A stretch of DNA of 64,000 nt from a plasmid. Below the pieces are notes generated by a model. It worked only from the letters and a program-made list of their open reading frames with translations. It did no database searches and was not told the origin of the DNA. The translations under genes and the position numbers were made by a program. Location: the sequence record NZ_CP069398.1; one strand, given 5' to 3'. Shown here piece after piece: positions 7,126 to 51,725 of this stretch (positions are counted from its first letter, which is position 1; each line of letters starts with the position of its first letter).

Positions 7126-7140
7126 GAAAGGATGAACAGA

Positions 7141-10222: not shown

Positions 10223-10242
10223 TATCAAAAGGGGGAGAAAGA

Positions 10243-10449: not shown

Positions 10450-10472
10450 TGCGTGTATAAGGAGATGAGCAG

Positions 10473-13283: not shown

Positions 13284-13322
13284 CAAGCGTTACTTCTCTT
13301 TTTTATGGGAAGGAGAAGAGTC

Positions 13323-13613: not shown

Positions 13614-13628
13614 AGGAGGGTATGATAG

Positions 13629-14342
13629 ATGGCATTATTTGATGAAAGAATCCTAGAAAAAGAGAAACCTATTTCAAAAGAAAAAAAGACAAGTAAATCC
13701 CTTCTCTTTGATGAAAAGGAAATGGATAAACGGATCGCTCAAACAAAGAAAAAGAATCCTTTTTCTCTGTTACAAACTCCAAAGGCTGAAAAGGAAAAAA
13801 AGAAAGAGAAACTACCGGAGGTAAAGAAAAGTGTAGCTGACATTATTCCCATCATCGATCAAACAGATAGTGGGTTATTTCAACTAAAAGATGATGGTGG
13901 CTTTTTTGGGATCTGGCAGCTTCAAAGTACAGATATCAATGCCATGCATGACCAAGAGGCAGGACGCAATATTTATACGCTGGCCAAAACGTACCAGGGT
14001 GATAAAGATCCGTTTAAAATTATCTCATTAAACTTGCCTGTTTCGACACAAAAGCAACAACAGTATCTTGAAAAGAAGATTCGAGAGGCAAACAATGCGT
14101 TATCCCTTCGGTTCTTACGAAAGAAATTAAAAGAACTTCAATATTTAGAATGGGGGCGAACCAATCGAGAATACTTTCTTTTTCTATATGGACCGACTGA
14201 ACTTGCTGTAAAAGAGCGAAAAGATCAATTTATGCGAGATGTTCAACTGGCTGTCCCTCTGTTACCTGTTTCGGATGAAAAACAAATTAATCTTCTTTAT
14301 AAACTCTACAATCAAAACGCCAAGCTTGGCAATAAACAATAA
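13629..14342 (+). CDS. VirB4-family ATPase, N-terminal part as a separate ORF
   Basis: A Lys-rich leader is followed by ADIIPIIDQTDSGLFQLKDDGGFFGIWQLQSTDINAM, which resembles the conserved N-terminus of Tn916 Orf16/TcpF/ConE-type VirB4. The ORF ends at a clean TAA 17 nt before the next ATG. Confidence 0.55.
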   Translation: MALFDERILEKEKPISKEKKTSKSLLFDEKEMDKRIAQTKKKNPFSLLQTPKAEKEKKKEKLPEVKKSVADIIPIIDQTDSGLFQLKDDGGFFGIWQLQSTDINAMHDQEAGRNIYTLAKTYQGDKDPFKIISLNLPVSTQKQQQYLEKKIREANNALSLRFLRKKLKELQYLEWGRTNREYFLFLYGPTELAVKERKDQFMRDVQLAVPLLPVSDEKQINLLYKLYNQNAKLGNKQ

Positions 14343-14359
14343 GAAAGGATGATAAAACC

Positions 14360-35458: not shown

Positions 35459-35633
35459 TCCTAACTTAATAAATTATTGATCATTTCATTAACCTTCTAA
35501 AAAAGTTAAATATTTCAACAAGTTATATTGTACAGATAATTCTTATATTTTTCATCTAAATTTGTAATATCATTATAAAAGACTATTACTATAGAGATAT
35601 CTTAGAATCTTTATAGCAACAGTCTTTTTTTCA

Positions 35634-36168
35634 TTAACTTATCTTAGTATTTTTCACGCTTAAATCTCTAATTAAATCTTGAATTTCGTTATTATCATAA
35701 ATTTTCTTTATCATTCCCTCTTTATCTAACAAGAACAAAGTAGGTACTTCTTTTATTTGATAATTAACCGAGAGGTCGTTCGATCGAATTAAATACATAT
35801 TCTTGTGAGTGACTAAGTTTGATAAATTTTCAAGTTCAGGATTTTCATCAGCTATAACAATTACTCTAATTGAAGGTGGAATCTTATTTTTAATTAATAT
35901 AAAGGTTTCTTTACACATATTACATATATCATCCGCAAAGAATAACAAAGTAAATGAATTATTAAAGTCACTTAATTTAACTAAATTCCCTTCATTATCG
36001 GTTTCTTTAAAAAGTGGAGCTTTCTTTCCAGCTGCCAACAAATTAGAATTTGTTTTTTCGATACGTAGATTTTTAAGGAAATGAGTAATAGATTTTGTGA
36101 GTAGAAATATAAATAAAGTTTGGATTATCACAACAACCCAAAGAATTATATTAGAGTATACTAAAGTA
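35634..36168 (-). pseudogene. TlpA/redoxin-like thiol-disulfide oxidoreductase, severed from its start codon and first 4 codons by the Tn3-family insertion
   Basis: The body encodes a signal anchor, then ...FADDICNMCKE (a CxxC variant) and a thioredoxin fold. The original ATG GGA CAT ACT lies at 49301-49312. Joining the minus strand across the TSD gives MGHTLVYSNIILWVV... in frame, with AAAAGGTG as RBS. At present the frame reads into the IR (MTLFYKYLGRTPT-), so residual expression is possible. Confidence 0.6.
36164..36168. repeat. target-site duplication AAGTA (left copy)
   Basis: Identical 5-mers directly abut the outer ends of both terminal IRs, as is typical for Tn3 family. Confidence 0.8.
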
Positions 36169-36210
36169 GGGGTACGACCGAGGTACTTGTAAAAAAGGGT
36201 CATAGCATGG
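36169..36210 (+). repeat. Tn3-family terminal inverted repeat (left)
   Basis: GGGGTACGACCGAGGTACTTGTAAAAAAGGGTCATAGCATGG. Confidence 0.85.
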
Positions 36211-36582
36211 ATTTTTTTTACATTTACAACCCTTTTTACTCTGTAGGGTAGGGTGGGGTCAGAAAAGTGCGGTTGTTGGTAGGATCCTAATAGGGGTAGT
36301 GTCATTGTCGCTACTCCTATTAAGGAATACTTAAACTAAATCACAAATTAATAAGAAGAAACACATCTTAAAAAATGAGCATTGAACCTTTGCATAATAA
36401 GCAAAAGTCCTTTAAAATTTGTTAGCCGGGTAGAAAATGCTATAATGCTCTTATAAAAAAGAATGGATGCAAAATAGTTTAGGTAAGTTCTAAAACGATT
36501 TCTTTTATTCTTCGACAAACAGGCCAGATTCGTAATTTCTCAAGAGAATAATACAAGTCGCTGTAGGGGTTTTTGTGTTTTT

Positions 36583-37570
36583 TCACTTATGATTACTTTG
36601 ATATACAAGACCTATTTCATCTCTCACTTTATCCAACACTTGTATCGTGGTGTATGAATTTTTATATGAGTTAGTATCAGACTCTGTTTTTCCTCGGTTG
36701 ATTAATTCAATAAATTCTTTCACTTCGTAATACATAGCTGGATGAGATTGGTCGACTGTTAATTGTTCAACCGTGCCGTCAGTGTAGTGAATTTCTACTT
36801 TTTCAGCCGTATGAATCTTATCAATCATGATACTTCCTTTTTCGCCTTGAATTTCGCTTGGTAAATAAGAGTTCGTTATTTTGGAATACATCACAATCGC
36901 ATCTTTATCATCATATTTTAAGATGACGCTACCTTCACCATCCACACCCGAATCAAGCATAATGCCAGTTGCCTTCACTTCTTTTGGTTCACCAAATAAT
37001 GTAATAAGTGGATACAAACAATAGACACCAAGGTCCATTAATGAACCGTTCGCAAACTCTGGATTGAAGGCATTAAGGACAATTCCTTCTTTGTATTTAT
37101 CATAACGAGATGAATACTGACAATAGCTTGCAAAGTATCTACGGATAGGACCAATTTTATGTAAATTATCTTGAATGACCTTGAAGTTTGGAAGTAAGGT
37201 TGATTTCATTGCTTCCATTAATAGGGCGTTATGATCTTTTGCGGCTTGAATCATCCTCGCTACTTCGGTTGCATTAACAGCCAGTGGCTTTTCACATAAC
37301 ACATGTTTGCCATTTTGCAAAAATAAAATAGCTTGTTCTGCGTGATATGAATTGGGAGTAGCCAATGTACACCGCGTCAATTTCTTGACTAACTGCCATT
37401 TCTTTTAGGTTTGTAAATATTTTTGTTACTCCATATTTACTTGCAAATTCTTCTGCTCTACTAATCGTGCGAGAATAAACAGCAGTTAGTTTAAAATCTT
37501 CTACATCATTTGCTGCTTCAAGTAATCTTTCTGTAATCCAATTAGTACCGATTACGCCGAATCGAACCAT
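36583..37570 (-). pseudogene. Gfo/Idh/MocA-family NAD(P)-dependent oxidoreductase, frameshifted
   Basis: Two overlapping ORFs together encode MVRFGVIGTNWI...IDAVYI / ATPNSYHAEQA... An apparent +1 insertion (extra G in TACATTGGCTAC) near 37362 changes the frame. Confidence 0.55.
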
Positions 37571-37928
37571 TTATTCAACCTCATTCCTTTGTTTTATAAA
37601 ACGAAGAGTTTTGTTTACTACACTTATGAAGCGTTTTTCATCGCCAATAGGATTTTATTTTCCCATAAAAAAACTTATATAGACATGGGGCCTACCAGTG
37701 AAATATTGGTGATAACCCAAATAGGGCTCATACTGTGAGTGATGGCTAAATTCTTGGCTGTGCCCCACCCAATAATGATCTCTGATCCGGCCATAGAAGG
37801 GACTGAATCAGAGGCTATTTTTTCTTTCCTGTATGGACTGTGTTATTTGTAATATGCAGTAAAGACCGCAATTCATAAAAGAAATAAATGCGGTCTTTAC
37901 GATGTTTCCATATTTTTTAAAGTGTACT

Positions 37929-38486
37929 CTATTCGAGATTGGCATGTTTGCCGTACATTTTAGTAGAGTCTAAGCCTTTTTTTTCCATAAAACGCAAGAT
38001 CAATGCATCATAAAATAATAACATCGTTTGCTCAAAAAGTGACCCCATTGGTTGTATGGTCTTATATTCACTTTCAGATTGATCTTTCGGTGATCCAGGC
38101 AATTTAATGATAATATCAGCTAATTTTCCAATCGTGGAGTCAGGGGAAATCGTTACAGCTGCGACCGTCCCACCTAAACTTTTTGCTTTTTCAGCGATTG
38201 AAACCAAGGTTTTCGTTTCACCTGAACCTGAACCGATGATCAACAAATCACCTTTTTCTAAATTTGCTGTTACAGTTTCACCGACTACATAAGCATCGAT
38301 CCCCATGTGCATCATTCTCATCACGAAAGATTTGCCCATAAATCCAGATCTGCCCGCACCTGCAACAAAGATTTTTTTGGATTCCAGAATCTTATTAACC
38401 AACTTCTCTGCTTCTTCGTCAGAGATTAAGTCGACTGTCCGACTTAATTCTTGAACGACTTCAGCTAAATATTGAGTAGTTTTCAT
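37929..38486 (-). CDS. hxlB: 6-phospho-3-hexuloisomerase (SIS domain)
   Basis: A 185-aa SIS-domain protein (VAGAGRSGFMGKSFVMR...IIGSGSGET) directly downstream of hxlA, as in the Bacillus hxlAB operon. Confidence 0.8.
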   Translation of the reverse strand: MKTTQYLAEVVQELSRTVDLISDEEAEKLVNKILESKKIFVAGAGRSGFMGKSFVMRMMHMGIDAYVVGETVTANLEKGDLLIIGSGSGETKTLVSIAEKAKSLGGTVAAVTISPDSTIGKLADIIIKLPGSPKDQSESEYKTIQPMGSLFEQTMLLFYDALILRFMEKKGLDSTKMYGKHANLE

Positions 38487-38494
38487 AGTTATAA

Positions 38495-39127
38495 TTAACC
38501 TTGTTTAATTAATTCTTGCATTTTAGCTGCAACTGCTTTTTTATCGTCTTTGCTTGTGATACCGCCACCTACGATGACAAGATCTGGTTGTACTTTAATC
38601 ACATCTGGAAGTGTTTCTAATTTGATTCCGCCTGCAATAGCAGTTTTCGCATTTTTTACAACGCTCTTAATGGTTGCAAGGTCTTCGAAAGAATTTTTTC
38701 CTACAGCTTGAAGGTCATAACCTGTGTGAACGCAGATATAATCTACTCCTAGTTCATCCAGTTCTTTCGCACGACCTTCAATGTCTTTAACTGCGATCAT
38801 ATCAGCAAGGATTTGTTTACCTTGTTTTTTTGCTTCTTCTACAGCACCTTTAATGGACTCGTCTTCAGCTGTACCAAGAATGGTGATGATGTCAGCGCCT
38901 GCTGCAGATGCTTGGCTAACTTCATATCCAGCTGCATCCATGATTTTAAGGTCAGCTAATACAGTTAAGTTAGGGAAGGCAGCTTTCACTTCCTTTACTG
39001 CTTTAAGGCCTTCATTAATCACAACCGGCGTGCCGATTTCTACAACATCTATATGATTTTCTACTTCTTTCACCAATTCAATGGCTCCTGGAATATCTAC
39101 AAGATCTAATGCTAATTGTAATTTCAT
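38495..39127 (-). CDS. hxlA: 3-hexulose-6-phosphate synthase
   Basis: MKLQLALDLVDI...VEIGTPV...VLADLK..DA...GVDYICVHTGYDLQAVG...IAGGIK...VIVGGGI is about 70% identical by eye to B. subtilis HxlA. Confidence 0.85.
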   Translation of the reverse strand: MKLQLALDLVDIPGAIELVKEVENHIDVVEIGTPVVINEGLKAVKEVKAAFPNLTVLADLKIMDAAGYEVSQASAAGADIITILGTAEDESIKGAVEEAKKQGKQILADMIAVKDIEGRAKELDELGVDYICVHTGYDLQAVGKNSFEDLATIKSVVKNAKTAIAGGIKLETLPDVIKVQPDLVIVGGGITSKDDKKAVAAKMQELIKQG

Positions 39128-39331
39128 TTATTACTCGCTCCTTATATAATAGTATAATTGTGCCGTATAGCTTTCTTTTGCACAGTGTTATTGTATCCAA
39201 TTGATAGCTATTTACTAACGGTATGATACTCAGTATACTGGGTATGTTACTAAATTAAAAGTATGCACTTTTTTATCATATAGTAACAAAAAGTATACTA
39301 TGGGACATAATAAGGGTTGGAGGTGAAATGA

Positions 39332-39697
39332 ATGCCGAATCTTGGGGAAAAAGTGTTTAATTGTGAAAAAGAATTGACTCTTTCGATTATTGGTGGAAAA
39401 TGGAAAATGTTGGTATTGTGGCATCTAGGAAAAGAAGGAACCAAACGTTTTGGTGAACTAAAGGCCCTCATGCCGGGTATCACTCAAAGAATGCTTGTTA
39501 ATCAATTGCGCGAACTTGAAGACCATTTGATTGTTCATCGTGAAGTCTATCCTGTCGTTCCACCAAAAGTTGAATACTCACTCACTGAGTATGGAAGAAG
39601 TCTGATGCCTATTCTGGAAGCTATGTATGACTGGGGTAAAGATTATATTGAGAATGTATTGGAAAAAGAAACAGAAAACAAATCGTCTATTCAGTAG
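39332..39697 (+). CDS. hxlR: HxlR-type winged-helix transcriptional activator
   Basis: The HxlR/MarR-like sequence ...[16 protein letters not shown]...[25 protein letters not shown]... lies divergent from hxlAB. Confidence 0.8.
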
Positions 39698-39863
39698 AAA
39701 AAAGAGTTTCTCCTAGGGGTTCGAAAAAGTGTAAAAAAGTTCATATACTAACAAACCACGGTTAGCTATCTTAATAAAGATGCTGTCCGTGTTTTTTTAT
39801 ATCTCTACGTATTTAAAAGGTTGAAAAAACACAACATTTAATAAAAGAATCAGTTACTAAAAA

Positions 39864-39908
39864 GCCAAGGGCAGCGAATCTTGTATAATCGCTGTCCTTG
39901 GCTTTTCA
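39864..39908 (+). terminator. strong rho-independent terminator after hxlR
   Basis: A 14-bp stem, GCCAAGGGCAGCGA..TCGCTGTCCTTGGC, followed by TTTT. Confidence 0.7.
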
Positions 39909-40158
39909 CTCTTGGTATTGGATTCAAGTTTATAGTATTATTTTTAACACTATGTTATACCAATGTATCTATATGTTAATAAAGTGCGTACTTTCAAAAG
40001 TATAACATACGTAATATACTGATTTTGCTCAAGTAATAGCGAGCTTAAAGAATACTACCAAACCTTAAGGGAATACTGCTACAAGCATGGTGAGATGAAG
40101 TGAAACTTCATTTAATAATTTATACATGTTGTTGCTTTTTACGAAAGGAGAGATCCGC

Positions 40159-40323
40159 ATGGAAAGGTTCAAAACTAAGCAGCGAAAAGTTTGTGAAAGA
40201 TGTCTAATCATCACCATAAATAATGAAACCTGTCCAAAATGTGGACATTCTCAATTAAGAGATATCATTATTACCGGACAAGCTGGGAGAAATAAACGAA
40301 ACTTACATCCAAAAGTAGGATAA
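40159..40323 (+). CDS. small zinc-ribbon protein, hypothetical
   Basis: CERC...CPKCGH (four Cys). AAAGGAGAG lies 8 nt upstream of the ATG. Confidence 0.4.
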   Translation: MERFKTKQRKVCERCLIITINNETCPKCGHSQLRDIIITGQAGRNKRNLHPKVG

Positions 40324-40419
40324 CGCAATAGCGAAAATCCTTGTTGTTTTGTAGGGGAAACGAAGAAAATCAGACATTTTTCTATTTGAAAATGCTTTGA
40401 AAAAGTGGAGGAATGAAAA

Positions 40420-41892
40420 GTGGATTCTATGACGTTTGTCTTATTTGGGGCAACTGGGGATTTAGCTAAGCGAAAAATCTACCCTGCCTTGTTTAATTTA
40501 TATTTGAATCAAAAATTACCAGATTCTTTTTTGATCATTGGTGTAGGAATAGACGAAATGTCTGATGTTGATTTTCAAAACCATGTAACAGACTCGCTAT
40601 ACACTTTTTCTAGACACTTGATAAATGATAAATCCGAAAAACAAGAGTTTGTAAAGGCATTTCGTTATTGCCAGTTAGATTTCACGAATGCTGAAGGGTA
40701 TAAGAAGTTAGTTGAAGTCGTTCAACAAAATGAAAAAGACCAGAGTATTGAAGAGAATCGAATGTTTTATCTTTCTGTTGCTCCTGAATTCTTTGATGTA
40801 ATTGCTTTAAACATAAAGGAGAGTGGCTTAGGTTCGACAAAGGGATGGAAACGATTGATTATCGAAAAACCATTTGGGTATGACTTAAAATCTGCTGAAG
40901 ATTTAAACGAAAAATTAAGCAAAGCTTTTGAAGAAGATGAAATTTTCCGGATTGACCATTATCTCGGAAAACCAATGGTTCAAAACCTTGAAGCCTTGGA
41001 ATTTGCCAATCCTGTGCTGCAATCACTTTGGAACAATCGGTTTATTGCCAATGTGCAAATTACGGCTAGTGAAACGGTTGGTGTAGAAGAGAGGGCTGGT
41101 TATTATGACCAAGCAGGCGCTATTCGTGATATGGTTCAAAATCATATGCTACAGCTGTTGATGATGACAGCCATGCATCTCCCAAAACAGATTAGTGCAA
41201 AAGATATCCGTAATGAGAAAAGAAAAGTTATGGAATCTCTGCGACCATTACAGAAAAATACTGTAGGTATCCACGTCGTTCGTGGCCAATATGGATCAGG
41301 TGAAATAAACGGTACACCAGTAGTCAGATACTTAGAAGAACCTGGCGTTGATGCTTCTTCTAAAAACGATACATTCGTCGCTGCTCGTCTATGGATTGAT
41401 AATTCCTTCTGGGACGGGGTCCCATTCTATATCCGGACAGGAAAAAGAATGACGGAAAAATTAACGCGGATTGTGATTGAATTCAAAAACCCATTAAAGA
41501 ATTTGTATACCAATGAAATCCAAAATGCTGAACCCAATCTATTAGTTATTAATGTAAGTCCTAATGAAGGTGTTTCGTTGCAGTTAAATAGTAAAAACCC
41601 GATAAATGGAAAATTAGAACCTATTGTTGTTGATTTTTCAGCGAGTAAAAAAGACGTGCCCGAAGCATATGAACTCTTAATATTTGATGCTCTGCGTGGG
41701 GACTCTACCTTCTTTGCTCATTGGGACGAAGTTGAATTATCTTGGAAATGGGTACAGCCCGTTTTAGAGGCGTTTGAGGAAAATGCCCTTCCACTCCACC
41801 TATATCAAGCCGGTTCGATGGGGCCACAAGCTGCTTCGCAATTATTGGAGGAGGATGGTTTTAAATGGTGGGAAACTAGGGGGGGAGTTTAA
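40420..41892 (+). CDS. zwf: glucose-6-phosphate 1-dehydrogenase
   Basis: The N-terminal NADP-binding motif FGATGDLAKRKIYPAL and the G6PD signature RIDHYLGKPMVQNL. GGAGG lies 9 nt ahead of the GTG start. Confidence 0.9.
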   Translation: MDSMTFVLFGATGDLAKRKIYPALFNLYLNQKLPDSFLIIGVGIDEMSDVDFQNHVTDSLYTFSRHLINDKSEKQEFVKAFRYCQLDFTNAEGYKKLVEVVQQNEKDQSIEENRMFYLSVAPEFFDVIALNIKESGLGSTKGWKRLIIEKPFGYDLKSAEDLNEKLSKAFEEDEIFRIDHYLGKPMVQNLEALEFANPVLQSLWNNRFIANVQITASETVGVEERAGYYDQAGAIRDMVQNHMLQLLMMTAMHLPKQISAKDIRNEKRKVMESLRPLQKNTVGIHVVRGQYGSGEINGTPVVRYLEEPGVDASSKNDTFVAARLWIDNSFWDGVPFYIRTGKRMTEKLTRIVIEFKNPLKNLYTNEIQNAEPNLLVINVSPNEGVSLQLNSKNPINGKLEPIVVDFSASKKDVPEAYELLIFDALRGDSTFFAHWDEVELSWKWVQPVLEAFEENALPLHLYQAGSMGPQAASQLLEEDGFKWWETRGGV

Positions 41893-42090
41893 TCCGCACC
41901 TCCCTGGAAGGCTATTGGTATGAAGAGAGCAAACCGAGGTTGGATTTGACAGATAATTGTTACGCGATTTACCCAAGGAACTTAAAGTATTTGTTGAATC
42001 CTTATGGTTCCATAAGGAGACCATGAAGAACAACAAATGGGTAGCATAATAATACAGGCTATTTTTTGTAATTTAAAGGAGGAAACTCAA

Positions 42091-42984
42091 GTGAAAGTAG
42101 GATTAATTGGATTAGGGAAAATGGGTATGAACTTAGGAAAAAACTTAATTGACAATAAACACCGTGTAATGGCGTTTGATCTAAATACAAATACTATTGA
42201 AGAAATTAAAAAATACGGAGTTGAAGGAGCATCCAGTTTACAAGATCTTGTTCAATCATTAGAAAAGCCACGAGTTGTTTGGATAATGGTCCCACACTCC
42301 GTCGTTGATTCAGTTATTAGTGAAATCACACCATTTCTAAGTGAAGGAGATATCGTCATTGAAGCTGGTAATTCGCATTATAAGGAATCCATTCGTCGTT
42401 ACGAACAGTTGAAGAAAGTTGGAGTGAGCTTTATGGATGCCGGTACTTCTGGGGGGATGGAAGGTGCTCGCTATGGTGCTTGTTATATGATTGGTGGAGA
42501 TCCTGAAGCATGGAGCATTGTCGAGCCGATTTTTAGAGATACAGCTGTAGATAATGGGTATTTATATGCTGGGAAATCTGGTAGTGGCCACTTCTTAAAA
42601 ATGGTCCACAATGGAATAGAATACGGAATGATGGCCGCCATTGGTGAAGGATTCGAAGTCCTGGAAAAAAGCGATTTCGATTTTGACTATGAAAAAGTGG
42701 CACGGGTGTGGAATAACGGTTCTGTCATCCGCTCATGGCTCATGGAATTGACAGAACGCGCATTTTCTAAAGATGCAAAATTAGATGAAATTAAGGGCAT
42801 TATGCATTCTTCTGGGGAAGGGAAATGGACAGTTGAAACCGCTTTGGATCTTCAAACAGCTACCCCTGTTATCGCTATGTCTTTACTAATGCGTTACCGT
42901 TCATTAGACAATGATACATTTACAGGTAAAGTGGTAGCTTCCCTTCGTAATGAATTTGGCGGACATGCTGTGGAAAAATCATAA
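42091..42984 (+). CDS. 6-phosphogluconate dehydrogenase (decarboxylating), short ~300-aa form (YqeC/GndA-like)
   Basis: The GTG start at 42091 follows AAGGAGG. It has the Rossmann fold GLIGLGKMGMNLGKNL plus GGDPEAW and KMVHNGIEYGMMAAIGEGF. Confidence 0.8.
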   Translation: MKVGLIGLGKMGMNLGKNLIDNKHRVMAFDLNTNTIEEIKKYGVEGASSLQDLVQSLEKPRVVWIMVPHSVVDSVISEITPFLSEGDIVIEAGNSHYKESIRRYEQLKKVGVSFMDAGTSGGMEGARYGACYMIGGDPEAWSIVEPIFRDTAVDNGYLYAGKSGSGHFLKMVHNGIEYGMMAAIGEGFEVLEKSDFDFDYEKVARVWNNGSVIRSWLMELTERAFSKDAKLDEIKGIMHSSGEGKWTVETALDLQTATPVIAMSLLMRYRSLDNDTFTGKVVASLRNEFGGHAVEKS

Positions 42985-43094
42985 AGTCATCTGCTGTATA
43001 TGTCTTTCGTTAAAATGAGCCGGAAATTCATTGGATTTTTAGTTTGGTATATCCCAAAAATTGGTAGATTTACTTAAGTCGTTGATAGTGCTAA

Positions 43095-43300
43095 CTATGT
43101 TGATTGAAGCGGAAGGAGCGAGACTCCTCGAAAATGCATTCACATTTTCTCGTGCGGTGCCTATTCACGGATGATGATTCAACGTCCTGCGGGAAAAACA
43201 TGACAAGGGAGACCCCGCAGCCGCACAGCGCCGAGGAGGCTCCCGGCTCGCCCGCGGAAAGCGAGCACCTGGAGCCAACAGACAAGTTTAACAGAGCCAA
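43095..43300. other. GC-rich multi-hairpin intergenic element of unknown function
   Basis: Four local hairpins, GGAGCGAGACTCC, GAAAATG-CATTCA-CATTTTC, CTGCGGG-N20-CCGCAG and GCTCGC-CCGCGGAAA-GCGAGC, sit in an AT-rich context. ORFs across the region on both strands have implausible composition. Confidence 0.35.
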
Positions 43301-43330
43301 AAAAATAAAACAATATTGAGGTGTGACATC

Positions 43331-43822
43331 ATGAACGTATTGGATGCAAAAATCATTAACACACAATATGGTTTAGAAACCTATTTAGACATGGTGAAGA
43401 ATATCGAAGTAAAAGAACTCCATTCTCCATCAGATAATGAGCCCTTTTATGAAATAGTATTAGGGATAGAGTATTTTCTTCTAAGGGACGGAAAATATTA
43501 TGATAGTGAAAGGAATTATTTTCGGATTCAAATGAGCGAAGATTTTAATTCAATCACGTTAAGAGAGACAGATACCGAAAGTTTATTTGCTGTCAAAACC
43601 GAACACGAGAGAGACTCAACTAAGCTACTGGTTGGAGAATGGCTTATAAAAACCAATGCTTTCAAGCAAGTAATAAGTGAACTGATCCAACAAAAGAAAA
43701 TGGAGAATGTTCAAAATGAGGGAGACACTCGAAAAGTATTAGGAACGATAAGATTCTTGGAAATATTACTTGAAATCAAAACAGAAGACATACTAAGTGC
43801 CGATGTAGAGAGGGACCATTGA
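43331..43822 (+). CDS. hypothetical protein
   Basis: The ATG at 43331 lies 7 nt after GAGGTG. A 163-aa acidic product. Confidence 0.45.
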   Translation: MNVLDAKIINTQYGLETYLDMVKNIEVKELHSPSDNEPFYEIVLGIEYFLLRDGKYYDSERNYFRIQMSEDFNSITLRETDTESLFAVKTEHERDSTKLLVGEWLIKTNAFKQVISELIQQKKMENVQNEGDTRKVLGTIRFLEILLEIKTEDILSADVERDH

Positions 43823-44062
43823 GTTTTCTTAATACTAACTGTCTTTTAATGTACGCTATTGATAATTACACGGTCCCACTAAGGATTTTTCAAAATTGAA
43901 AAGGGGGAGTTTAAATGTGTTTTTAAAAACTTCCCTTATATACTGTAGAAAAGGAGAATGCACTAACATGAAACGTTTTACTATGCCGAGAGATCTTTTT
44001 TACGGAGAAGGATCTCCGATTGAAGCAGCTAAGCTAAATTTGATTGAAAGGGGAAGTAATGT

Positions 44063-45400
44063 ATGACTATTTCGTTTGATTACTCCAATGCATTAGCATT
44101 TATGAAAAAGAGTGAAGTAGATAATCTAAGTGAATTTGTAAAAGTGGCTCATAAAATGCTACATGAAAAAACAGGCCCCGGCTCTGATTATCTTGGTTGG
44201 GTCGATTTGCCACTAAACTATGATAAGAGTGAATTTGAAAGAATTAAACAAGCTGCTGAAAGAATCAAGAAACATTCAGACGCAATGGTTGTAATTGGTA
44301 TTGGTGGTTCGTATTTGGGTGCAAGATCAGCTATAGAAGCTTTGTCCCATAGCTTTCATAACCAAATGAACGATAAGACAAAAGTGTATTTTGCCGGTCA
44401 CAATATCAGTTCTACTTATATATCTCATTTATTTGAACTATTAGAGGGGAAAGATATCTCTGTTAACGTCATTTCCAAATCAGGAACAACGACAGAGCCA
44501 GCCCTTGCTTTCCGTATTTTTCGTGACTATATGGAGAAAAAATACGGAAAAGAAGAGGCGAGAAAACGTATTTTTGCCACTACTGATCAGGAAAAAGGCG
44601 TATTAAAAAAGCTCGCGGACAAAGAAGGATATGAAACGTTTGTTATTCCGGATGATGTAGGTGGAAGGTATTCTGTGCTAACAGCAGTTGGTCTCTTACC
44701 AATTGCCGTAGCAGGACTTGATATTGATCATATGATGGAAGGGGCAGCAGCAGCAGCCCGTAAATACAACAATCCTGATTTATTGACAAATGAGAGCTAT
44801 CAGTATGCTGCGGTCCGAAATGTACTCTACAATAAGGGAAAAGCAATTGAAGTGCTTGTTAACTATGAGCCCTCCCTTCACTACGTATCGGAATGGTGGA
44901 AGCAGCTGTTTGGGGAAAGTGAAGGAAAAGATCAAAAGGGGCTATTCCCTGCTTCCGTTGATTTTTCAACGGATTTGCATTCCATGGGGCAATATGTACA
45001 AGAAGGTCGACGAAACCTTTTAGAAACGGTTTTACAGATTAAGAAACCTCGAATTGAAGTGACTATTCAGGAGGATCCAGAAAATATTGATGGATTAAAC
45101 TTCCTGGCAGGTAAGACGATGGATGAAGTCAACAAAAGTGCATTTCAGGGTACCCTTATGGCCCATATAGATGGAGAAGTACCTAATCTCGTGATTGAAC
45201 TGGATGAAATGAATGAATACACTTACGGTGAGATGGTTTACTTTTTTGAGAAGGCATGTGGGATTAGTGGCCATCTATTAGGAGTTAACCCATTTGACCA
45301 GCCTGGAGTCGAAGCATACAAGAAGAATATGTTTGCTTTACTTGACAAACCTGGTTTTGAAGCAGAAAAAGCTACTCTCATGGAGCGTTTATCAAAATAA
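44063..45400 (+). CDS. pgi: glucose-6-phosphate isomerase (Bacillus-type ~450 aa)
   Basis: The N-terminus [16 protein letters not shown]...[17 protein letters not shown] closely matches Bacillus Pgi. The SIS domains are present. Confidence 0.9.
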
Positions 45401-45409
45401 TTATATCTG

Positions 45410-45600
45410 ATTGGTTTTGTATTAATAAAAAGATTGTTACCAAAAACCATATTTTTTGTAACAATATTTATGAGAAATACTGATGCTTGATTTTACTAAT
45501 TTTATAGGTTACCAAAAATAATTACCAAAAGTTTTACCAAATACTTTTACAAAAATGATGTCTCTTGTACAATTAGATTATTAAATTGTGCAGGAGGCTT
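45410..45600. promoter_or_regulatory. res (resolution) site candidate upstream of tnpR
   Basis: TTACCAAAA-type motifs are repeated (TGTTACCAAAAACCA, GGTTACCAAAAATAATTACCAAAAGTTTTACCAAATAC). TGTNACA-like half-sites are consistent with three resolvase binding subsites. Confidence 0.45.
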
Positions 45601-45604
45601 CTTT

Positions 45605-46171
45605 ATGATAATCGGTTATGCTCGAGTTTCGACAGTTGACCAAAATTTAGACCGACAAATTATATTACTTTCTGAGTACGGCTGTGAAAAAATGGTTCAA
45701 GAGAAATTTACTGGGACTACAAAGGATAGAGATGGACTTAACTCATTGCTAGATGTAATAAGGAAAGGTGATACCGTTGTAGTAGAAAGTATTTCACGCT
45801 TAGGGAGAAAAACACTTGATATTCTTTCTATTATTCAGCAATTCGAGGATACTGGTGTAAAGTTCGTTTCTATTAAGGAGAACATGGATACAAGAACATC
45901 AACGGGAAAAGCCATGTTTCAAATGATGTGTGTCATCGCAGAGTTAGAAAGAAATTTAATTGTAGAAAGAGTTAAAGAAGGGTTAGAAGCGAGTAAAAGA
46001 AGAGGAAAAAAACTAGGAAGGCCTAAAGTGGATCAAGGGAAAATTGAAATAGCCTTGAGGATGTATGACAGTAAAGAATACTCGGTAAAAGAAATTGTAG
46101 AAGGTACAGGACTTTCACAGGGATCATTATATCGAGCGATTAATAAAAGAAAACTAGTAGAAGCAAATTAA
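45605..46171 (+). CDS. tnpR: serine recombinase / resolvase
   Basis: MIIGYARVSTVDQNLDRQ... carries the catalytic Ser, and the C-terminus is an HTH. The gene is co-directional with tnpA. Confidence 0.9.
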   Translation: MIIGYARVSTVDQNLDRQIILLSEYGCEKMVQEKFTGTTKDRDGLNSLLDVIRKGDTVVVESISRLGRKTLDILSIIQQFEDTGVKFVSIKENMDTRTSTGKAMFQMMCVIAELERNLIVERVKEGLEASKRRGKKLGRPKVDQGKIEIALRMYDSKEYSVKEIVEGTGLSQGSLYRAINKRKLVEAN

Positions 46172-46242
46172 TAATCTCTTATATTTTTAGGGAATTATGT
46201 GACGGACTAGGGCAGCTACTCTGTCACCACCCCCAACTTAAT

Positions 46243-49209
46243 TTGAATGGAGTTGGTAATTTGGCATCTATAGAACGTACGGCTTATCCAAGATTTAAAA
46301 AACGTCCTACTTCAAAAGAACTTCGTGATGTTTACTCCCCTACACCTGAAGAAAACCAATTTGCGCATAAAGTTGCTAGAGGACCTGTTTCAGTTCTAAG
46401 TCTATTAGTTATGTTAAAGTCTTTCCAACGACTTGGTTACTTTCCTCGACCGAAAGATATTCCTGTAGAGATCATGATTCATATTCGGACCTGTTTGAAT
46501 CTCTCTGCTAGTGTTGAACCGAATTACAATAGTAAATCAATTTACCGACATCAAAAAGCAATTAGAGATTACCTCAATGTACGTCCTTATGGAAAAGAAG
46601 CCTTACATATTGCAACTACTTCAATTTATAAGGCTACACAGGTAATGGACAATCCAGCCGATCTTATCAACGTATCCATTGAAATATTAATAAAAGAAAG
46701 GTGTGAATTACCTGCTTTTAGTACATTAGATCGATTGGCTCGTCGTATAAGAACATTAGTGAATCACCAGTTATTTAATTCAGTATTTTCAAAATTGACT
46801 CCTGAAATTGAGCGAAAATTAGATCAATTACTAGTTACTAAAAATGATAATCGGACTTCTGAATATAACTTATTAAAAGAAATTCCAAAAAGCGCAACAC
46901 TTTCGCATATGAAAGAAATACAAAATAGGTTACTTCTGTTAACTGATTTTATAGAAGAAATTGATAGCTTACTAGAGGATATTCCAAATTTAAAAATTAA
47001 ACACTTCGCTTTAGAAGCAAAAGCGCTTGATGCATCAGAATTAAAAGACTTTAATTTAGCTAAAAGATATATGCTGCTACTTTGTATGATTTATCGCTCA
47101 AAAATTTCAGCTATAGATAGTTTGGTAGAGATGTTTCTCAAAAGAGTCAGAACAATACATAACAAAGGCAAAGAGGAGCTAGAACTTCTTCGAGAAAAAC
47201 ATAGATCAAAAACTGAAAATCTTATATCTGTTTTGGCGGAAGTCTTAAATGCCACAAGTATAAATGAGAACGATACCTTGACTGGTCAGAAAATAAGGGA
47301 GTTATTAGGGAGAAGAGGTGGTATCGACGCATTAAAAGAAGATTGTGAATCAATTTCATCATATAATGGCAATAACTACCTTCCTCTTTTATGGAAGTTC
47401 TATAAAAGCCACAGGAAAACTCTTTTTAGATTGATTAGTATGATTGAAATTAATTCAACCACACAGGATCAATCACTTTTAGAAGCTTTACAATTTTTAC
47501 GTGATAATGAGAACCGAAAAATTGAAAATCTACAAATAGATTTGGATCTTTCATTTGCTAGTGAACAGTGGAAAAAAACGATTTATGTACCTAAAGAAAA
47601 TAACTTAATCCATCGTAAACACCTTGAAATCTGTATTTTTTCCTATCTTGCAAGCGATTTAAAAACGGGAGACCTTTGTGTAAAAGGATCAGAGAATTTT
47701 GCTGATTACCGTGAACAGCTCCTTTCTTGGGATGAGTGTAAACCTATGGTAGATGAATACTGTAAGGAACTTGGCTTTTCTTCAAATTCAGGGGATTTTG
47801 TTCAACAATTAAAGCTCTGGCTAGGAGATACTGCACAAAAAGTAGATTTAAACTACCCTGATAACGGCCAGGTAATCATTAATGAAAATGGAGAACCAAC
47901 GTTGAGAAAAATAATGAGAAAAGAACAACCTCAGACAAGTAAGGCGTTAGAGGTAGTTATTTCTCAACGGTTACCTGAACGAAATGTCTTAGATATTCTT
48001 TGTAATGTAGAACATTGGACAAATTGGACACGGCATTTTGGACCATTATCTGGTTCAGATCCTAAGCTTGAAAATGCAATGGAACGTTATATCATTACTT
48101 CTTTTGGATACGGATGTAATTTAGGACCAACACAGACTTCTAAGCACATGAAAAAAGCAGTAACCCCACACATGATTTCATTTGTAAATCGGCGACATAT
48201 TAATGCATCTAAAATAGACGAAGCTATTCGTAATATTTTAAATCAATACAATCAATTTAGTTTGCCTAGACTATGGGGTGATGGAAAAACGGCTGCTGCA
48301 GATGGAACAAAATTTGATCTCTACGAAGAAAACTTAATCTCTGAATACCACATTCGATACGGAGGTTATGGGGGGATTGCATATCATCATGTTTCAGATA
48401 CTTATATTGCACTCTTTAGTCACTTCATTCCATGTGGAGTTTGGGAAGCAGTTTATATTATTGATGGTTTGCTGAAAAATAAATCAGACATTCAGCCCGA
48501 TACGTTACATGCTGATACGCAAGGTCAATCAACGCCTGTTTTTGCACTTGCACATTTATTGGGGATTAATTTAATGCCTCGTATTCGAAATTGGAAGGAT
48601 TTAAAATTTTACAGGGCTGATAAGGACACAAAATATCACCACATTGATCAGTTGTTTAGTGATACCGTTGACTGGGACCTAATTGAAACACACTGGCAAG
48701 ATCTGCTCCAAGTGGTTCTTTCTATAAAAGCTGGTAAAATATTACCCTCTACACTACTTAGAAAACTAAGTAACTATAGTAGAAAAAACCGATTATATCA
48801 AGCTTTTAGGGAATTAGGAAGGATTGTAAGAACTGTATTTTTGCTTAAATATATTTCTGATATAAAACTAAGAGAGCAAATTGGTGCTAGTACAAACAAA
48901 GTCGAAGCATATAACGGCTTTTCCAAATGGCTATTTTTTGGTGGCGATGGGATCATTTCAGAAAATGATCCAGAAGAACAAGAAAAGCGAATTAAATATA
49001 ATGATTTAGTTGCCAACGCAGTAATATTCCAAAATGTATGTGATATAACACTTATTTTGTGGGAACTTTCTAAAGAAGGCTATGTATTTTCAAAAGAAGA
49101 TATTGTCATGCTTAGCCCTTATCTGACTAGGCATATAAAACGTTTCGGAGACTATATGATCGATTTAGAAAATATTCCACAACCAATCGAGGGAGATATT
49201 CCTGTATAG
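46243..49209 (+). CDS. tnpA: Tn3-family DDE transposase
   Basis: The 988-aa length is typical. It ends about 50 bp inside the right IR. The C-terminal catalytic region includes ...DGTKFD... and ...LHADTQGQS.... Confidence 0.8.
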   Translation: MNGVGNLASIERTAYPRFKKRPTSKELRDVYSPTPEENQFAHKVARGPVSVLSLLVMLKSFQRLGYFPRPKDIPVEIMIHIRTCLNLSASVEPNYNSKSIYRHQKAIRDYLNVRPYGKEALHIATTSIYKATQVMDNPADLINVSIEILIKERCELPAFSTLDRLARRIRTLVNHQLFNSVFSKLTPEIERKLDQLLVTKNDNRTSEYNLLKEIPKSATLSHMKEIQNRLLLLTDFIEEIDSLLEDIPNLKIKHFALEAKALDASELKDFNLAKRYMLLLCMIYRSKISAIDSLVEMFLKRVRTIHNKGKEELELLREKHRSKTENLISVLAEVLNATSINENDTLTGQKIRELLGRRGGIDALKEDCESISSYNGNNYLPLLWKFYKSHRKTLFRLISMIEINSTTQDQSLLEALQFLRDNENRKIENLQIDLDLSFASEQWKKTIYVPKENNLIHRKHLEICIFSYLASDLKTGDLCVKGSENFADYREQLLSWDECKPMVDEYCKELGFSSNSGDFVQQLKLWLGDTAQKVDLNYPDNGQVIINENGEPTLRKIMRKEQPQTSKALEVVISQRLPERNVLDILCNVEHWTNWTRHFGPLSGSDPKLENAMERYIITSFGYGCNLGPTQTSKHMKKAVTPHMISFVNRRHINASKIDEAIRNILNQYNQFSLPRLWGDGKTAAADGTKFDLYEENLISEYHIRYGGYGGIAYHHVSDTYIALFSHFIPCGVWEAVYIIDGLLKNKSDIQPDTLHADTQGQSTPVFALAHLLGINLMPRIRNWKDLKFYRADKDTKYHHIDQLFSDTVDWDLIETHWQDLLQVVLSIKAGKILPSTLLRKLSNYSRKNRLYQAFRELGRIVRTVFLLKYISDIKLREQIGASTNKVEAYNGFSKWLFFGGDGIISENDPEEQEKRIKYNDLVANAVIFQNVCDITLILWELSKEGYVFSKEDIVMLSPYLTRHIKRFGDYMIDLENIPQPIEGDIPV

Positions 49210-49257
49210 TATATAAGAAAGTAAAGAGCAAGAAAGGGTTATAAATGGTAAACAATA

Positions 49258-49299
49258 CCATACTATGACCCTTTTTTACATGTATCTCGGTCGTACCCC
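49258..49299 (-). repeat. Tn3-family terminal inverted repeat (right)
   Basis: The reverse complement, GGGGTACGACCGAGATACATGTAAAAAAGGGTCATAGTATGG, matches the left IR at 39/42. Confidence 0.85.
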
Positions 49300-49304
49300 A
49301 AGTA
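49300..49304. repeat. target-site duplication AAGTA (right copy)
   Basis: Identical to 36164-36168. Confidence 0.8.
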
Positions 49305-49326
49305 TGTCCCATAGCAAACACCTTTT

Positions 49327-49914
49327 CTAATTGTTATTTTTTAAAGACGAGATAATCTTATTAAAGTTTTCTATTATATGAATTAGTTCTCTAATTAGCA
49401 ATAATAAAATAATTATACAAATGGAAATGATTAAATATTGCCATGATTTATATCCAAATGCATAAACAGGGTTATTCGTATTTATTAAAGTATCAATAGA
49501 GAACAATGAATTTTTATTAAATGAAATTAAAAGTGCGGTTATAATGAGAAGAATATTTCTCACAACCAGTTTCCACGATAATTGATGATTCCCTAAAACT
49601 CCTCCACATCCACATGATATTTCTGTACGTCCCCGTAATAAATTTATAGAAATAGCAGTAATATAGACAAATAACAACGAAACTGCGCCTATGATAGCTA
49701 CTATTTCTAAAAGTCCGATTATTAGAAGTATTCCAACGGCTAATTCTGCTATAAAGTCCAATCTTCCAGCTATCTTAGAAAAATTAGAAGGTATTACTTT
49801 ATAATCGCTAATTATTCCAATATGTTTATCAAAATTGTTATATTTTGAAATAGCACTACTTAGAAAGATAAACGCTAAAAATACCCTTAAAAATAATTCT
49901 AATGCTGAGTTCAT
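49327..49914 (-). CDS. MauE/DoxX-like integral membrane protein
   Basis: Four to five TM helices and a CGCGG motif. The gene overlaps the ABC transporter stop by 4 nt (operon). Confidence 0.5.
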   Translation of the reverse strand: MNSALELFLRVFLAFIFLSSAISKYNNFDKHIGIISDYKVIPSNFSKIAGRLDFIAELAVGILLIIGLLEIVAIIGAVSLLFVYITAISINLLRGRTEISCGCGGVLGNHQLSWKLVVRNILLIITALLISFNKNSLFSIDTLINTNNPVYAFGYKSWQYLIISICIIILLLLIRELIHIIENFNKIISSLKNNN

Positions 49915-51725
49915 ACAAGCACCTCTTGAACTTCTTTCTTATCTTGATACCATTGAGCCTGACTATTATACATTTCTGCGTATAGGGCACCTAATTTTAT
50001 TAAATCATCATGAGTTCCTTCCTCAACGATCTGTCCATTTTTTAAAACTAGAATACGATCCGCAAGTTTAGCAGAGGCCATTCTGTGAGAAATAAATAAT
50101 GTCGTTTTATCTTTAGAAAGTTCATTAAACTTGTTATATATATTTAATTCCGTGATAGGGTCTAAAGCTGAAGATGGTTCATCTAATATTAATACCTCAG
50201 CATCCCTAAATAATGCTCTAGATATAGCGATTTTTTGCCATTGTCCACCAGATAAATCCACTCCACTCCCCAAAAAATTCCCTAACAAAGTATCGTATCC
50301 CTTATTAAGCTTATTGATAAAATCATGCGAATCTGCCAATTGAGACGTAGCTAGTATCTTTTCTTTGTTATTTATTTCACCAGTAGAACTTATTGCTATA
50401 TTCTCAAAGGCTTTAAAGTAATATTTCATAAAATCTTGAAAGATGATGGAGAACTTGTTTCTTATGTCATTAGGGTTTATATAATTTGAATCAATATTAT
50501 CATATAAAATTGACCCACTGGTTGGTTTGTACAAACCTGCTAAACACTTAACTAAAGTAGTTTTCCCGGAACCATTCCTACCAACAATGGCGATTTTCTC
50601 CCCTGGTTTAATTGTTAAAGAAATATCTTTCAGAATCTCATTTTCACTATTTAAATATCTGAAAGAAATGTTCTTTAATTCTATACCCTTCTGCAATTTT
50701 TCATGTAAGAGCTGTTGCACTTTTCGATTGTCATTTAATTCATCTTCAGTGTTATAATCTACAAATTTATAATAATCATTAATATATAATGATTTCTCAT
50801 AAATTTGCGCCAAATCAACTGCAATTCCATTAATTGAACTTTGAGTAGTATGGACTGCTTCACCTATTACAACAAACTCCCCAATTTGAATTTTGGTTTT
50901 TTTTATGAGCCATATTATAATGAATGCTGCCCCTCCGTAAAACAAAGCCGATGCTCCATCTAAAGCAATTTTAGATTGATGTTCTTTTTTGGCTAACAAT
51001 AAATTTGCTTTATTATTCTTAATAAATTTTTTAGACCACTTATGTAATAAAAAATCTCTTAAATTAAAAGAACGGATTTCTTTAGAAGCTTCCCGAACTT
51101 TGATCAATTGTGAAATATAATCAGCCTCACGAGCTTCAGGTGTAGTATTGTATAGCAACCAGAAGCGTTTATCTCCAAATTTAGAGTTAATAATAAACAT
51201 AGGTATACATACAACTAAACTAAAGACTACTAAAGACCAATGGATGCTAAATAAGAACCCTAGCATAGAGATTAAAGTAATAAAAGTCCTAAAAATTTGT
51301 ATTACTGACTTAAAAGGAGCCAAGAAAGCATTCCCACTACCATCTAATCTCGATAAATGATTGTAAAAATTATTATCATCAAAATACTCTAAAGGAATAG
51401 AGGAAGCCCTTTTTAATATTTCAGATTCTAAATAATAATTTAAATGCAATTGGAATTTTTTATCTATATAGTCATTAATATTAGTTATAAATGTACTAGC
51501 TAAAGAAATGAATAACTGTAAAATTAACAATGTAATTGGTAAAGAAAAATCATAATCAGAGTGATTGATGCTGTAAGCTAAGGAGTTAACTAGTTCTTTA
51601 GTTATGAATAGTACGAGAACAGGCACAACCCCTAATAAAATATTAGAAAAAACAGAAATAAAAATCCAAGATTTTCCCATGGACCAAATTAATTTAAAAG
51701 CTTTTGTCATGTTAATTATGTTCAA
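49911..51725 (-). CDS. fused ABC exporter (6-TM permease plus ATP-binding domain), bacteriocin/peptide-export type, without C39 peptidase domain
   Basis: Walker A GRNGSGKTT, signature LSGGQWQKIAISRAL and Walker B ILILDEPSSALD. The N-terminal half is a hydrophobic transmembrane domain. Confidence 0.8.
   Translation of the reverse strand: MNIINMTKAFKLIWSMGKSWIFISVFSNILLGVVPVLVLFITKELVNSLAYSINHSDYDFSLPITLLILQLFISLASTFITNINDYIDKKFQLHLNYYLESEILKRASSIPLEYFDDNNFYNHLSRLDGSGNAFLAPFKSVIQIFRTFITLISMLGFLFSIHWSLVVFSLVVCIPMFIINSKFGDKRFWLLYNTTPEAREADYISQLIKVREASKEIRSFNLRDFLLHKWSKKFIKNNKANLLLAKKEHQSKIALDGASALFYGGAAFIIIWLIKKTKIQIGEFVVIGEAVHTTQSSINGIAVDLAQIYEKSLYINDYYKFVDYNTEDELNDNRKVQQLLHEKLQKGIELKNISFRYLNSENEILKDISLTIKPGEKIAIVGRNGSGKTTLVKCLAGLYKPTSGSILYDNIDSNYINPNDIRNKFSIIFQDFMKYYFKAFENIAISSTGEINNKEKILATSQLADSHDFINKLNKGYDTLLGNFLGSGVDLSGGQWQKIAISRALFRDAEVLILDEPSSALDPITELNIYNKFNELSKDKTTLFISHRMASAKLADRILVLKNGQIVEEGTHDDLIKLGALYAEMYNSQAQWYQDKKEVQEVLV

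Follow-up and report, generated by a model that had tools for sequence, protein, structure and literature searches.

The "housekeeping" genes zwf, gnd and pgi are found on accessory replicons, a puzzle that has been stated for plasmids of Staphylococcus hominis (PMC9782665). The plasmid record NZ_CP069398.1 poses it anew. In a 64,000-nt stretch of this plasmid (hereafter, the window), the three genes lie together with hxlA, hxlB and hxlR and with genes for a transposase and a resolvase in the segment 36164-49304, which is the subject of this report. Why should a plasmid carry such a set of central-metabolism genes? We consider it very probable, judging from the sequence, that the segment is an intact, autonomous and recently active unit transposon of the Tn3 family whose passengers would form a formaldehyde-inducible, cyclic ribulose monophosphate (RuMP) module. 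A regulated central-metabolism cycle that is moved as a single 13-kb unit would be unusual cargo, and it would explain the presence of zwf, gnd and pgi on accessory replicons.

The element proper occupies 36169-49299 (13,131 bp; features in Table 1). Its left and right inverted repeats (IRL and IRR) can be read directly from the sequence: they match at 39 of 42 positions, begin with GGGG at their tips and are abutted by perfect AAGTA direct repeats, just as an earlier note on this DNA had described. The likeness of the two arms reaches 67 nt at 87% identity (to 36235 on the left and from 49233 on the right). A degenerate inverted-repeat (IR) pattern that covers both arms occurs twice in the window and not once in 100 dinucleotide-preserving shuffles. 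The flanks are Priestia-type plasmid DNA, and the insertion split a gene for a TlpA-like redoxin, the first four codons of which (MGHT; ATG at 49310-49312) now lie across the element from the gene body. Joining 36168 to 49305, with one copy of AAGTA kept, rebuilds a redoxin open reading frame (ORF) that begins MGHTLVYSN; thus, the insertion fell after codon 4. The same join aligns without gaps, and with 78% identity across the junction, to plasmid NZ_CP071467.1 of Priestia megaterium H2. In that plasmid the site is empty: only 14 bp separate the end of a MauE/DoxX gene from the uninterrupted redoxin gene that comes next, and a single copy of the duplicated sequence is present (AGAGTA aligned with the AAAGTA context). 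On the host plasmid, the disrupted redoxin gene stands in a cluster between MauE/DoxX and ABC-transporter genes (35634-36168 and 49305-51725).

The expectation of the earlier note that the same IR-bounded unit would be found at other loci, with different 5-bp duplications, was borne out in several genera. A megablast search with 36164-49304 as the query returned matches that start and end exactly at the IR tips (query positions 6-13136), at 99.9-100% identity, on P. megaterium pPmC-129-4 and two Paenibacillus urinalis plasmids; the duplications at the pPmC-129-4 and P. urinalis insertions are TCTTT and TAACT. A scan for the IR pattern, covering one genome per species, located the IR of the element in nine further species, among them Niallia hominis, Robertmurraya kyonggiensis, Robertmurraya sp. 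2P01SA (in the chromosome), Bacillus yapensis, B. massiliglaciei, Bacillus sp. B1-b2, Paenibacillus provencensis and Paenibacillus sp. Marseille-Q4541. All but one of the nine carry transposon sequence at at least 99.5% identity. Ten insertions with both ends each have their own matched 5-mer (AAGTA, TCTTT, TAACT, TTTAA, GAATT, TAAGG, GATGT, ATATT, AGCAT and AATAT); together these are 80% A+T, and a chance match has a probability of 1/1024 per pair. At least 17 distinct flanks are represented, including those in the chromosomes CP088245.1, CP118101.1, CP040367.1, CM126253.1 and CP154845.1, and the copy in CP088245.1 is 100.000% identical over 13,039 bp. From IR to IR, the copies that Priestia, Paenibacillus, Niallia, Robertmurraya, Bacillus and others carry on plasmids or in chromosomes are 98-100% identical, and the exact TnpA protein is present in 35 blocks of public assemblies.

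Two side observations concern the hosts of these copies. They include human blood and clinical isolates of P. megaterium and Paenibacillus urinalis. Further, plasmid and chromosome records whose accession numbers are close to each other have insertions at different sites; this is at most an indirect hint on replicative transposition and target immunity.

These data bear directly on the proposition that the IRs and the AAGTA repeats are coincidental or a relic, and that the cluster is native to its place on the plasmid. We assign next to no probability to it. The absence of the IR pattern from the shuffles, the empty site in a related plasmid and the identical unit that ends at the IR tips in unrelated contexts, with ten different matched duplications, together rule it out. 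The related scenario in which the same gene order stands at this site without a transposase fails, since NZ_CP071467.1 has an empty site. Nor are zwf, gnd and pgi likely to be merely the only housekeeping copies of a host. That notion is contradicted by the occurrence of 98-100% identical copies in different genera. It is also contradicted by strain 1-2-1 of P. flexa, which has the element in its chromosome (CP040367.1) plus a diverged, non-transposon cluster on plasmid CP040366.1; for the host of NZ_CP069398.1 itself, the comparison covers the plasmid segment. Because an identical unit occupies unrelated sites with different duplications, the three genes move as its cargo; they are not housekeeping genes passed on by vertical descent.

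The machinery for this movement is arranged in the order res-tnpR-tnpA, all co-directional, and the gene calls uphold the organisation of the Tn21/Tn501 type that had been proposed. TnpA matches positions 2-951 of the 954 in profile NF033527 (PF13700 and PF01526 are also on record), and it matches the structure of the Tn4430 transposase (7QD4) with E=1e-74. Membership in the Tn3 family, as the earlier note had it, is therefore supported by NF033527. Of the references that the note proposed for comparison, Tn4430 has a transposase that is only distantly related. The best matches on plasmids of B. anthracis and Enterococcus faecium are distant as well; they share ~24-26% identity with TnpA, as do copies annotated as TnAs1/TnAs3, whereas for unnamed elements from Xanthomonas, Sinorhizobium and Dolichospermum the figure is 40-53%. 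TnpR matches the structures of the Gin invertase, the gamma-delta resolvase and the Tn3 resolvase; its score against PF02796 (HTH_7), 23.0 bits, is slightly below the cut-off of 23.8. From what is known of the family, TnpA would act on the 42-bp GGGG ends and generate the 5-bp target duplications, and TnpR would act at res, upstream of tnpR, to resolve cointegrates.

Where does the resolvase cut? The res region consists of site I, a 27-bp palindrome at 45436-45462 (GTTACCAAAAA-CCATA-TTTTTTGTAAC), and of GTTACCAAAA-like repeats at 45508-45560. Three independent recombinants break at the central AT of site I (45449-45450; local positions ~14241, ~5605 and ~1981 of stretches L004, L017 and L018). 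On plasmid NZ_CP028214.1 of B. subtilis SRCM102749, which has 98%-identical cargo and no transposon ends, homology stops at 45450, and in two Paenibacillus genomes the homology of the right-hand module starts at ~45443-45449. The res-tnpR-tnpA-IRR module of B. cereus pJ7_2 is 99.9% identical, and divergence starts directly left of the site I palindrome. A serine resolvase makes a 2-bp staggered cut, and junctions at the central AT would result. We infer from the recombinant junctions that this dinucleotide is the crossover site and that modules have been exchanged there; the junctions would thus be a natural map of resolvase cleavage. By direct inspection, the full site I is absent from the B. 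subtilis and Paenibacillus recombinants, which keep one half of it. The partner halves are non-canonical, being unlike the GTTACCAAAAA half-site; a classical res x res exchange is thus only a tentative mechanism for those events. Neither a left IR nor cargo was found in the 27.9 kb around the pJ7_2 module. That module (12001-15879 of the stretch read) is on a conjugative plasmid; it may be what is left of an element that kept one end, or a relative with another load.

What, then, might the cargo do? The gene calls were checked against curated Pfam and NCBIfam profiles, and the identities that had been given to hxlR-hxlAB and to zwf, the short gnd and pgi all score above the family cut-offs. 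The exact HxlB protein is found in 335 blocks of the public assembly collection. The short Gnd, the start codon of which was taken from the RefSeq annotation of an identical copy, matches the solved structures 4E21 and 8IHE of short-form 6-phosphogluconate dehydrogenases (6PGDHs). HxlR matches the B. subtilis HxlR structure 7BZD (E=7.6e-56) with residues 3-109 covered. Its residues 9-15, FNCEKEL, are the same as those of the B. subtilis protein, and the sensor pair of Cys11 and Lys13 is kept. Formaldehyde cross-links these two residues of the FNCEKEL segment, which activates DNA binding by HxlR (PMC7835342).

These identities allow a mechanism to be proposed. HxlR would sense formaldehyde by cross-linking of Cys11 to Lys13, and it would then activate two promoters that share an operator box, one for hxlA-hxlB and the other for the small ORF, zwf, gnd, the 163-aa ORF and pgi. 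HxlA would join formaldehyde to ribulose-5-phosphate, and the resulting hexulose-6-phosphate would be converted by HxlB to fructose-6-phosphate and by Pgi to glucose-6-phosphate. Zwf would oxidise the latter to 6-phosphogluconolactone, which would give 6-phosphogluconate spontaneously or by the action of a host lactonase; from this, the short, NAD-type Gnd would produce ribulose-5-phosphate and CO2. Each turn of this cyclic dissimilatory RuMP pathway would dispose of one formaldehyde as CO2, yield two NAD(P)H and regenerate the acceptor. We infer these fluxes, the induction and a resistance phenotype from the gene set. The portrayal of the locus as a transposable module for formaldehyde detoxification or oxidation is supported, its mobility by the empty site and the other loci and its function, more provisionally, by the predicted enzymes.

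Evidence that the two operons respond to one signal comes from the boxes that precede them. Box 1 and box 2 agree at ~77% of 53 nt, both face their downstream genes in the same orientation, and their core takes the form ACTATAT-N7-AAAGTGCRTACTTT-N19-TATACT; box 2 has a -35-like TTCAAA and a -10-like TATACT at 40015-40020. The window was compared with stretches L004, L026, L027 and L028, four more diverged Bacillaceae plasmids, and in all five replicons the box core is kept, with 0-1 mismatch, upstream of hxlA and zwf. Neither S. aureus pWBG746 nor a plasmid of Leuconostoc has it upstream of hxlA. A hairpin sits between hxlR and the promoter of the zwf operon, and a scan of 35500-50000 with Rfam revealed no riboswitch, the two sub-threshold matches being due to chance (one of them spurious, on the hairpin). 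That the same box precedes hxlAB as well as the zwf operon speaks for a single formaldehyde regulon, in which this putative operator would place both operons under the control of HxlR. The sensor residues and the shared box strengthen the view that HxlR controls the cargo; the earlier note, too, had called it the activator.

The relatives of the cargo offer a view of its origin. The layout hxlB-hxlA / hxlR-zwf(-gnd-pgi) is found, at ~81-83% identity, on plasmids of P. flexa, P. megaterium and Cytobacillus oceanisediminis that have no transposon ends; within the stretch read, the full zwf-gnd-pgi operon is annotated only in the P. flexa copy. In P. flexa and Cytobacillus, a Zn-dehydrogenase gene is next to hxlB and an Fe-type alcohol dehydrogenase gene is at the other end of the cluster, and the B. 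subtilis plasmid copy (98% identical) has a Zn-dehydrogenase of the same family downstream of pgi (dehydrogenase genes at 1012-2160 and 9301-10467 of L026, 4639-5787 and 12275-13441 of L027, and 14920-16068 of L004). The best match of the Zn-dehydrogenase is the glutathione-independent formaldehyde dehydrogenase, at a score below the curated cut-off; the Fe-type enzyme is far under every curated cut-off, that of methanol dehydrogenase included. It appears that the transposon acquired its passengers from a gene island that Bacillaceae carry on plasmids. This arrangement suggests that the ancestral island served alcohol or aldehyde oxidation, and that the transposon took only its RuMP part. More distantly, hxlA is present on 153 PLSDB plasmids, 103 of them from Staphylococcus, and the HxlA of the element is ~59-61% identical to the staphylococcal plasmid proteins. 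On S. aureus pWBG746, hxlA is paired with genes for an HxlR-like regulator and a DJ-1/PfpI-type protein, not with hxlB; a Leuconostoc plasmid has hxlR-hxlA-hxlB-pgi.

Might zwf, gnd and pgi serve mainly to boost the oxidative pentose-phosphate pathway under oxidative or electrophile stress, with hxlAB alone handling formaldehyde, such that the transposon holds two unrelated sets of passengers? The three enzymes are ordinary ones of central metabolism, Cys11 is conserved in related members of the HxlR family (DUF24) that sense other electrophiles and oxidants (PMC7835342), and the authors who described an analogous cluster on S. hominis plasmids gave it no function (PMC9782665). We nevertheless regard this account as improbable. 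It does not sit well with the conserved box, which in five diverged replicons stands before hxlAB and again before the zwf operon. Nor does it fit the fact that zwf, gnd and pgi stay linked to hxlAB and hxlR on plasmids of the Bacillaceae and in a distant chromosome. The HxlR of the element has both Cys11 and Lys13, the formaldehyde-specific pair, and the FdhA-like and Fe-type alcohol dehydrogenases that are linked in the ancestral islands point to the metabolism of one-carbon (C1) compounds and aldehydes.

An assimilatory role, in which the module would be a portable entry into methylotrophy that brings formaldehyde into biomass and in which Zwf, Gnd and Pgi only replenish ribulose-5-phosphate, strikes us as very improbable. 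Methylotrophy is plasmid-dependent in Bacillus methanolicus, and the related clusters, as noted, have an Fe-type alcohol dehydrogenase after pgi and a Zn-dehydrogenase beside hxlB. The transposon, however, has neither an alcohol or methanol dehydrogenase nor the rearrangement genes pfk, fba, tkt, glpX and rpe, and the Fe-dehydrogenase of its relatives falls short of the methanol dehydrogenase cut-off. The encoded set is exactly the oxidative branch, by which the fixed carbon is lost as CO2.

A formaldehyde-inducible, cyclic RuMP module is thus the reading that we prefer, and several points weigh against it. The pathway had been called complete, a description that holds for HxlA, HxlB, Pgi, Zwf and Gnd and not for 6-phosphogluconolactonase: the Pfam and NCBIfam searches gave no match to a lactonase family for any ORF of the cargo. 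Hydrolysis of 6-phosphogluconolactone can proceed spontaneously or by a host enzyme, and the cycle, which must lean on one or the other, can still work. Fructose-6-phosphate could equally drain into glycolysis, in which case the outcome would be assimilation or linear detoxification and not cycling. Three cargo ORFs, those for the Gfo/Idh/MocA-family protein, the 54-aa zinc ribbon and the 163-aa protein, have no assigned role. Finally, a generic scan for promoters and terminators gave no enrichment over shuffles, and it served only to place the hexamers in the box.

The zinc-ribbon and 163-aa ORFs were both located in the cargo, as had been reported. The former is annotated as hypothetical in NZ_CP069401.1, and its homologues (41-52% identity) hold the same position in plasmids of P. 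megaterium ATCC 14581 and Cytobacillus. Among the 51 homologues of the 163-aa protein, none that bears a name comes from outside the Bacillaceae. Its confidently predicted fold, a beta-sheet domain followed by a helical bundle (predicted local distance difference test score, 93.3), has no structural relative in the PDB. A 48%-identical homologue (8001-8495 of L030) is beside rpiA-zwf-gnd-tal-pgi and hxlR in a 4.55-Mb chromosome, and another adjoins rpiB and sugar-phosphate genes; the linkage of this family to pentose-phosphate genes is real. The Gfo/Idh/MocA gene is a pseudogene in the window, with one extra base at ~37364 (GTAGCCAATG here, GTAGCAATG in intact copies). Two lineages can be told apart by this gene. 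In lineage A, to which the window belongs, copies are at least 99.7% identical to each other and have the frameshift; lineage B is ~98-98.7% identical and encodes an intact protein of 328 aa. The frameshift that the earlier note listed is thus a secondary defect of one lineage, and the element as such lacks it.

Rearranged variants also exist. The IRs are 25.8 kb apart in Paenibacillus provencensis (contig 9; matched duplication GAATT) and 28.2 kb apart in the chromosome of Robertmurraya sp. 2P01SA (matched duplication GATGT); these are larger or interrupted versions of the element. In two assemblies (L034 and L036; 3548-9911), pgi and res are separated by a second, nested Tn3-family element, which brings a transposase gene that is split, a resolvase of its own, a regulator of the HxlR family and an NmrA-like gene. 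In R. kyonggiensis (6158-8000 of L012 and 1-1398 of L013) and B. yapensis (3091-6331 of L016), the right end is duplicated beside the element as a 586-bp fragment that includes an IR, and genes for an FdhA-like dehydrogenase and a second, different resolvase are found just outside the right IR. The 5-bp duplication in R. kyonggiensis pairs the left IR with the outer one, which makes a 16.4-kb composite.

Table 1. Features of the transposon and its insertion site, by position in the window
Feature	Position	Strand	Basis
TlpA-like redoxin gene body, split from its first four codons	35634-36168	-	reconstruction and alignment to NZ_CP071467.1
Target duplication, left copy AAGTA	36164-36168		direct reading; same as 49300-49304
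IRL, 42 bp, GGGG at tip: GGGGTACGACCGAGGTACTTGTAAAAAAGGGTCATAGCATGG	36169-36210	+	direct reading; preceded by ...ACTA AAGTA
Gfo/Idh/MocA-family oxidoreductase, pseudogene here	36583-37570	-	PF01408, PF22725 and PF02894 matches over two frames
hxlB, 6-phospho-3-hexuloisomerase	37929-38486	-	TIGR03127, 261 bits (cut-off 160)
hxlA, encoding 3-hexulose-6-phosphate synthase	38495-39127	-	TIGR03128, 289 bits (cut-off 200)
Operator/promoter box 1 (putative), upstream of hxlAB; core palindrome AAAGTGCATACTTT at 39258-39271 (minus strand), TATACT -10-like	39231-39283	-	predicted function
hxlR, MarR/DUF24-type activator, divergent from hxlAB	39332-39697	+	PF01638, 133 bits (cut-off 20.8)
Hairpin after hxlR, probable terminator, AAAAGCCAAGGGCAGCG...CGCTGTCCTTGGCTTTT	39862-39906	+	direct reading; predicted function
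Operator/promoter box 2 (putative), before small ORF and zwf; core AAAGTGCGTACTTT at 39981-39994	39969-40021	+	predicted function
Zinc-ribbon-like ORF, 54 aa (CERC...CPKC), first of zwf operon	40159-40323	+	translation
zwf, glucose-6-phosphate dehydrogenase	40420-41892	+	TIGR00871, 581 bits (cut-off 401)
gnd, short-form (297 aa) decarboxylating 6PGDH, NAD+-type family	42091-42984	+	TIGR00872, 478 bits (cut-off 297)
Conserved 163-aa protein	43331-43822	+	no family match
pgi, glucose-6-phosphate isomerase	44063-45400	+	NF010697, 734 bits (cut-off 443)
res region	45436-45560	+	repeats upstream of tnpR
tnpR, serine resolvase	45605-46171	+	PF00239, 148 bits (cut-off 23.3)
tnpA, Tn3-family DDE transposase, 982 aa	46261-49209	+	NF033527, 738.5 bits (cut-off 500)
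IRR, reverse complement arm GGGGTACGACCGAGATACATGTAAAAAAGGGTCATAGTATGG	49258-49299	-	direct reading; AAGTA directly after
Target duplication, right copy AAGTA	49300-49304		direct reading

Elsewhere in the window, the G+C content peaks at 0.475 in 12001-13000, inside a 936-aa ORF (10473-13283), against ~0.35 in the rest.

A broader interpretation can be offered, though only tentatively, for we think it less likely than not. The transposon may be a self-contained, formaldehyde-inducible cassette that is now spreading among genera of the Bacillales and confers a transmissible tolerance to formaldehyde and formaldehyde-releasing biocides. It might turn hosts that have a suitable alcohol dehydrogenase into partial oxidisers of C1 compounds, and the 163-aa protein might be a new accessory component that, for example, replaces the lactonase or organises the enzymes. 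The 98-100% identical copies across genera, clinical isolates among them, make a role in biocide tolerance worth testing. Further, formaldehyde toxicity is a bottleneck in synthetic methylotrophy, and a natural, compact cassette for formaldehyde dissimilation that appears to be under HxlR control, with its own sensor and promoters, may serve engineering.

How does the element compare with known systems? A literature search found no description or naming of this transposon (ISfinder and TnCentral were outside its scope). It is apparently undescribed as a formaldehyde-detoxification module, and its sequences are public, having been annotated automatically, gene by gene. As a transposon, it is of a familiar kind. 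It has the ~1000-aa DDE transposase, the GGGG IRs of ~40 bp (within the ~38-48 bp of the family), the 5-bp duplications at A+T-rich targets, the serine resolvase with a predicted res upstream of tnpR and the modular exchange at res that go with a layout of the Tn21/Tn501 type, and it occurs at multiple loci, with an empty site known for one of them. Tn4430, by contrast, uses a tyrosine recombinase for resolution. The cargo is what sets it apart: most of the passengers discussed for Tn3-family elements are genes for antibiotic or metal resistance, toxins or aromatic catabolism, whereas this one carries a sugar-phosphate cycle.

The closest parallel in gene content is the IS257-flanked, seven-gene cluster (hxlA, hxlB, pgi, gndA, zwf and others) of the S. 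hominis plasmids pShoR14-1 and pFDAARGOS_136-1, the function of which was called unknown (PMC9782665). Both have the same functional set on an accessory replicon within a transposon-like structure, and S. hominis also has chromosomal copies of the housekeeping genes (PMC9782665). The staphylococcal cluster, however, is a composite IS257 structure without direct repeats, whereas the element described here is a Tn3-family unit transposon. Plasmid pAsaXII of Aeromonas salmonicida likewise has a mobile, IR-flanked determinant of formaldehyde detoxification, a thiol-dependent (frmAB-type) module that raises the minimum inhibitory concentration fourfold (PMC5736529). That determinant differs in its linear, glutathione-dependent oxidation, in the absence of a transposase from the element and in its Gram-negative host.

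In the cyclic dissimilatory RuMP pathway, Hps, Phi, Pgi, glucose-6-phosphate dehydrogenase and 6PGDH regenerate ribulose-5-phosphate and yield CO2 and reducing power, and the same set of reactions is found in Bacillus methanolicus MGA3 and Methylobacillus flagellatus KT (PMC8879981). There, the host's own methylotrophy apparatus includes the genes; the set described here rides on a 13-kb transposon in genera that are not methylotrophs, and neither a lactonase nor a methanol dehydrogenase comes with it. The resemblance to the hxlR-hxlAB locus of B. subtilis extends to the divergent arrangement, the Cys11-x-Lys13 sensor and HxlA and HxlB proteins that are above the equivalog cut-offs. That locus is chromosomal and relies on the housekeeping pgi, zwf and gnd. 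The element, in contrast, is mobile as a whole and supplies a dedicated zwf-gnd-pgi operon, which the box precedes in its second copy.

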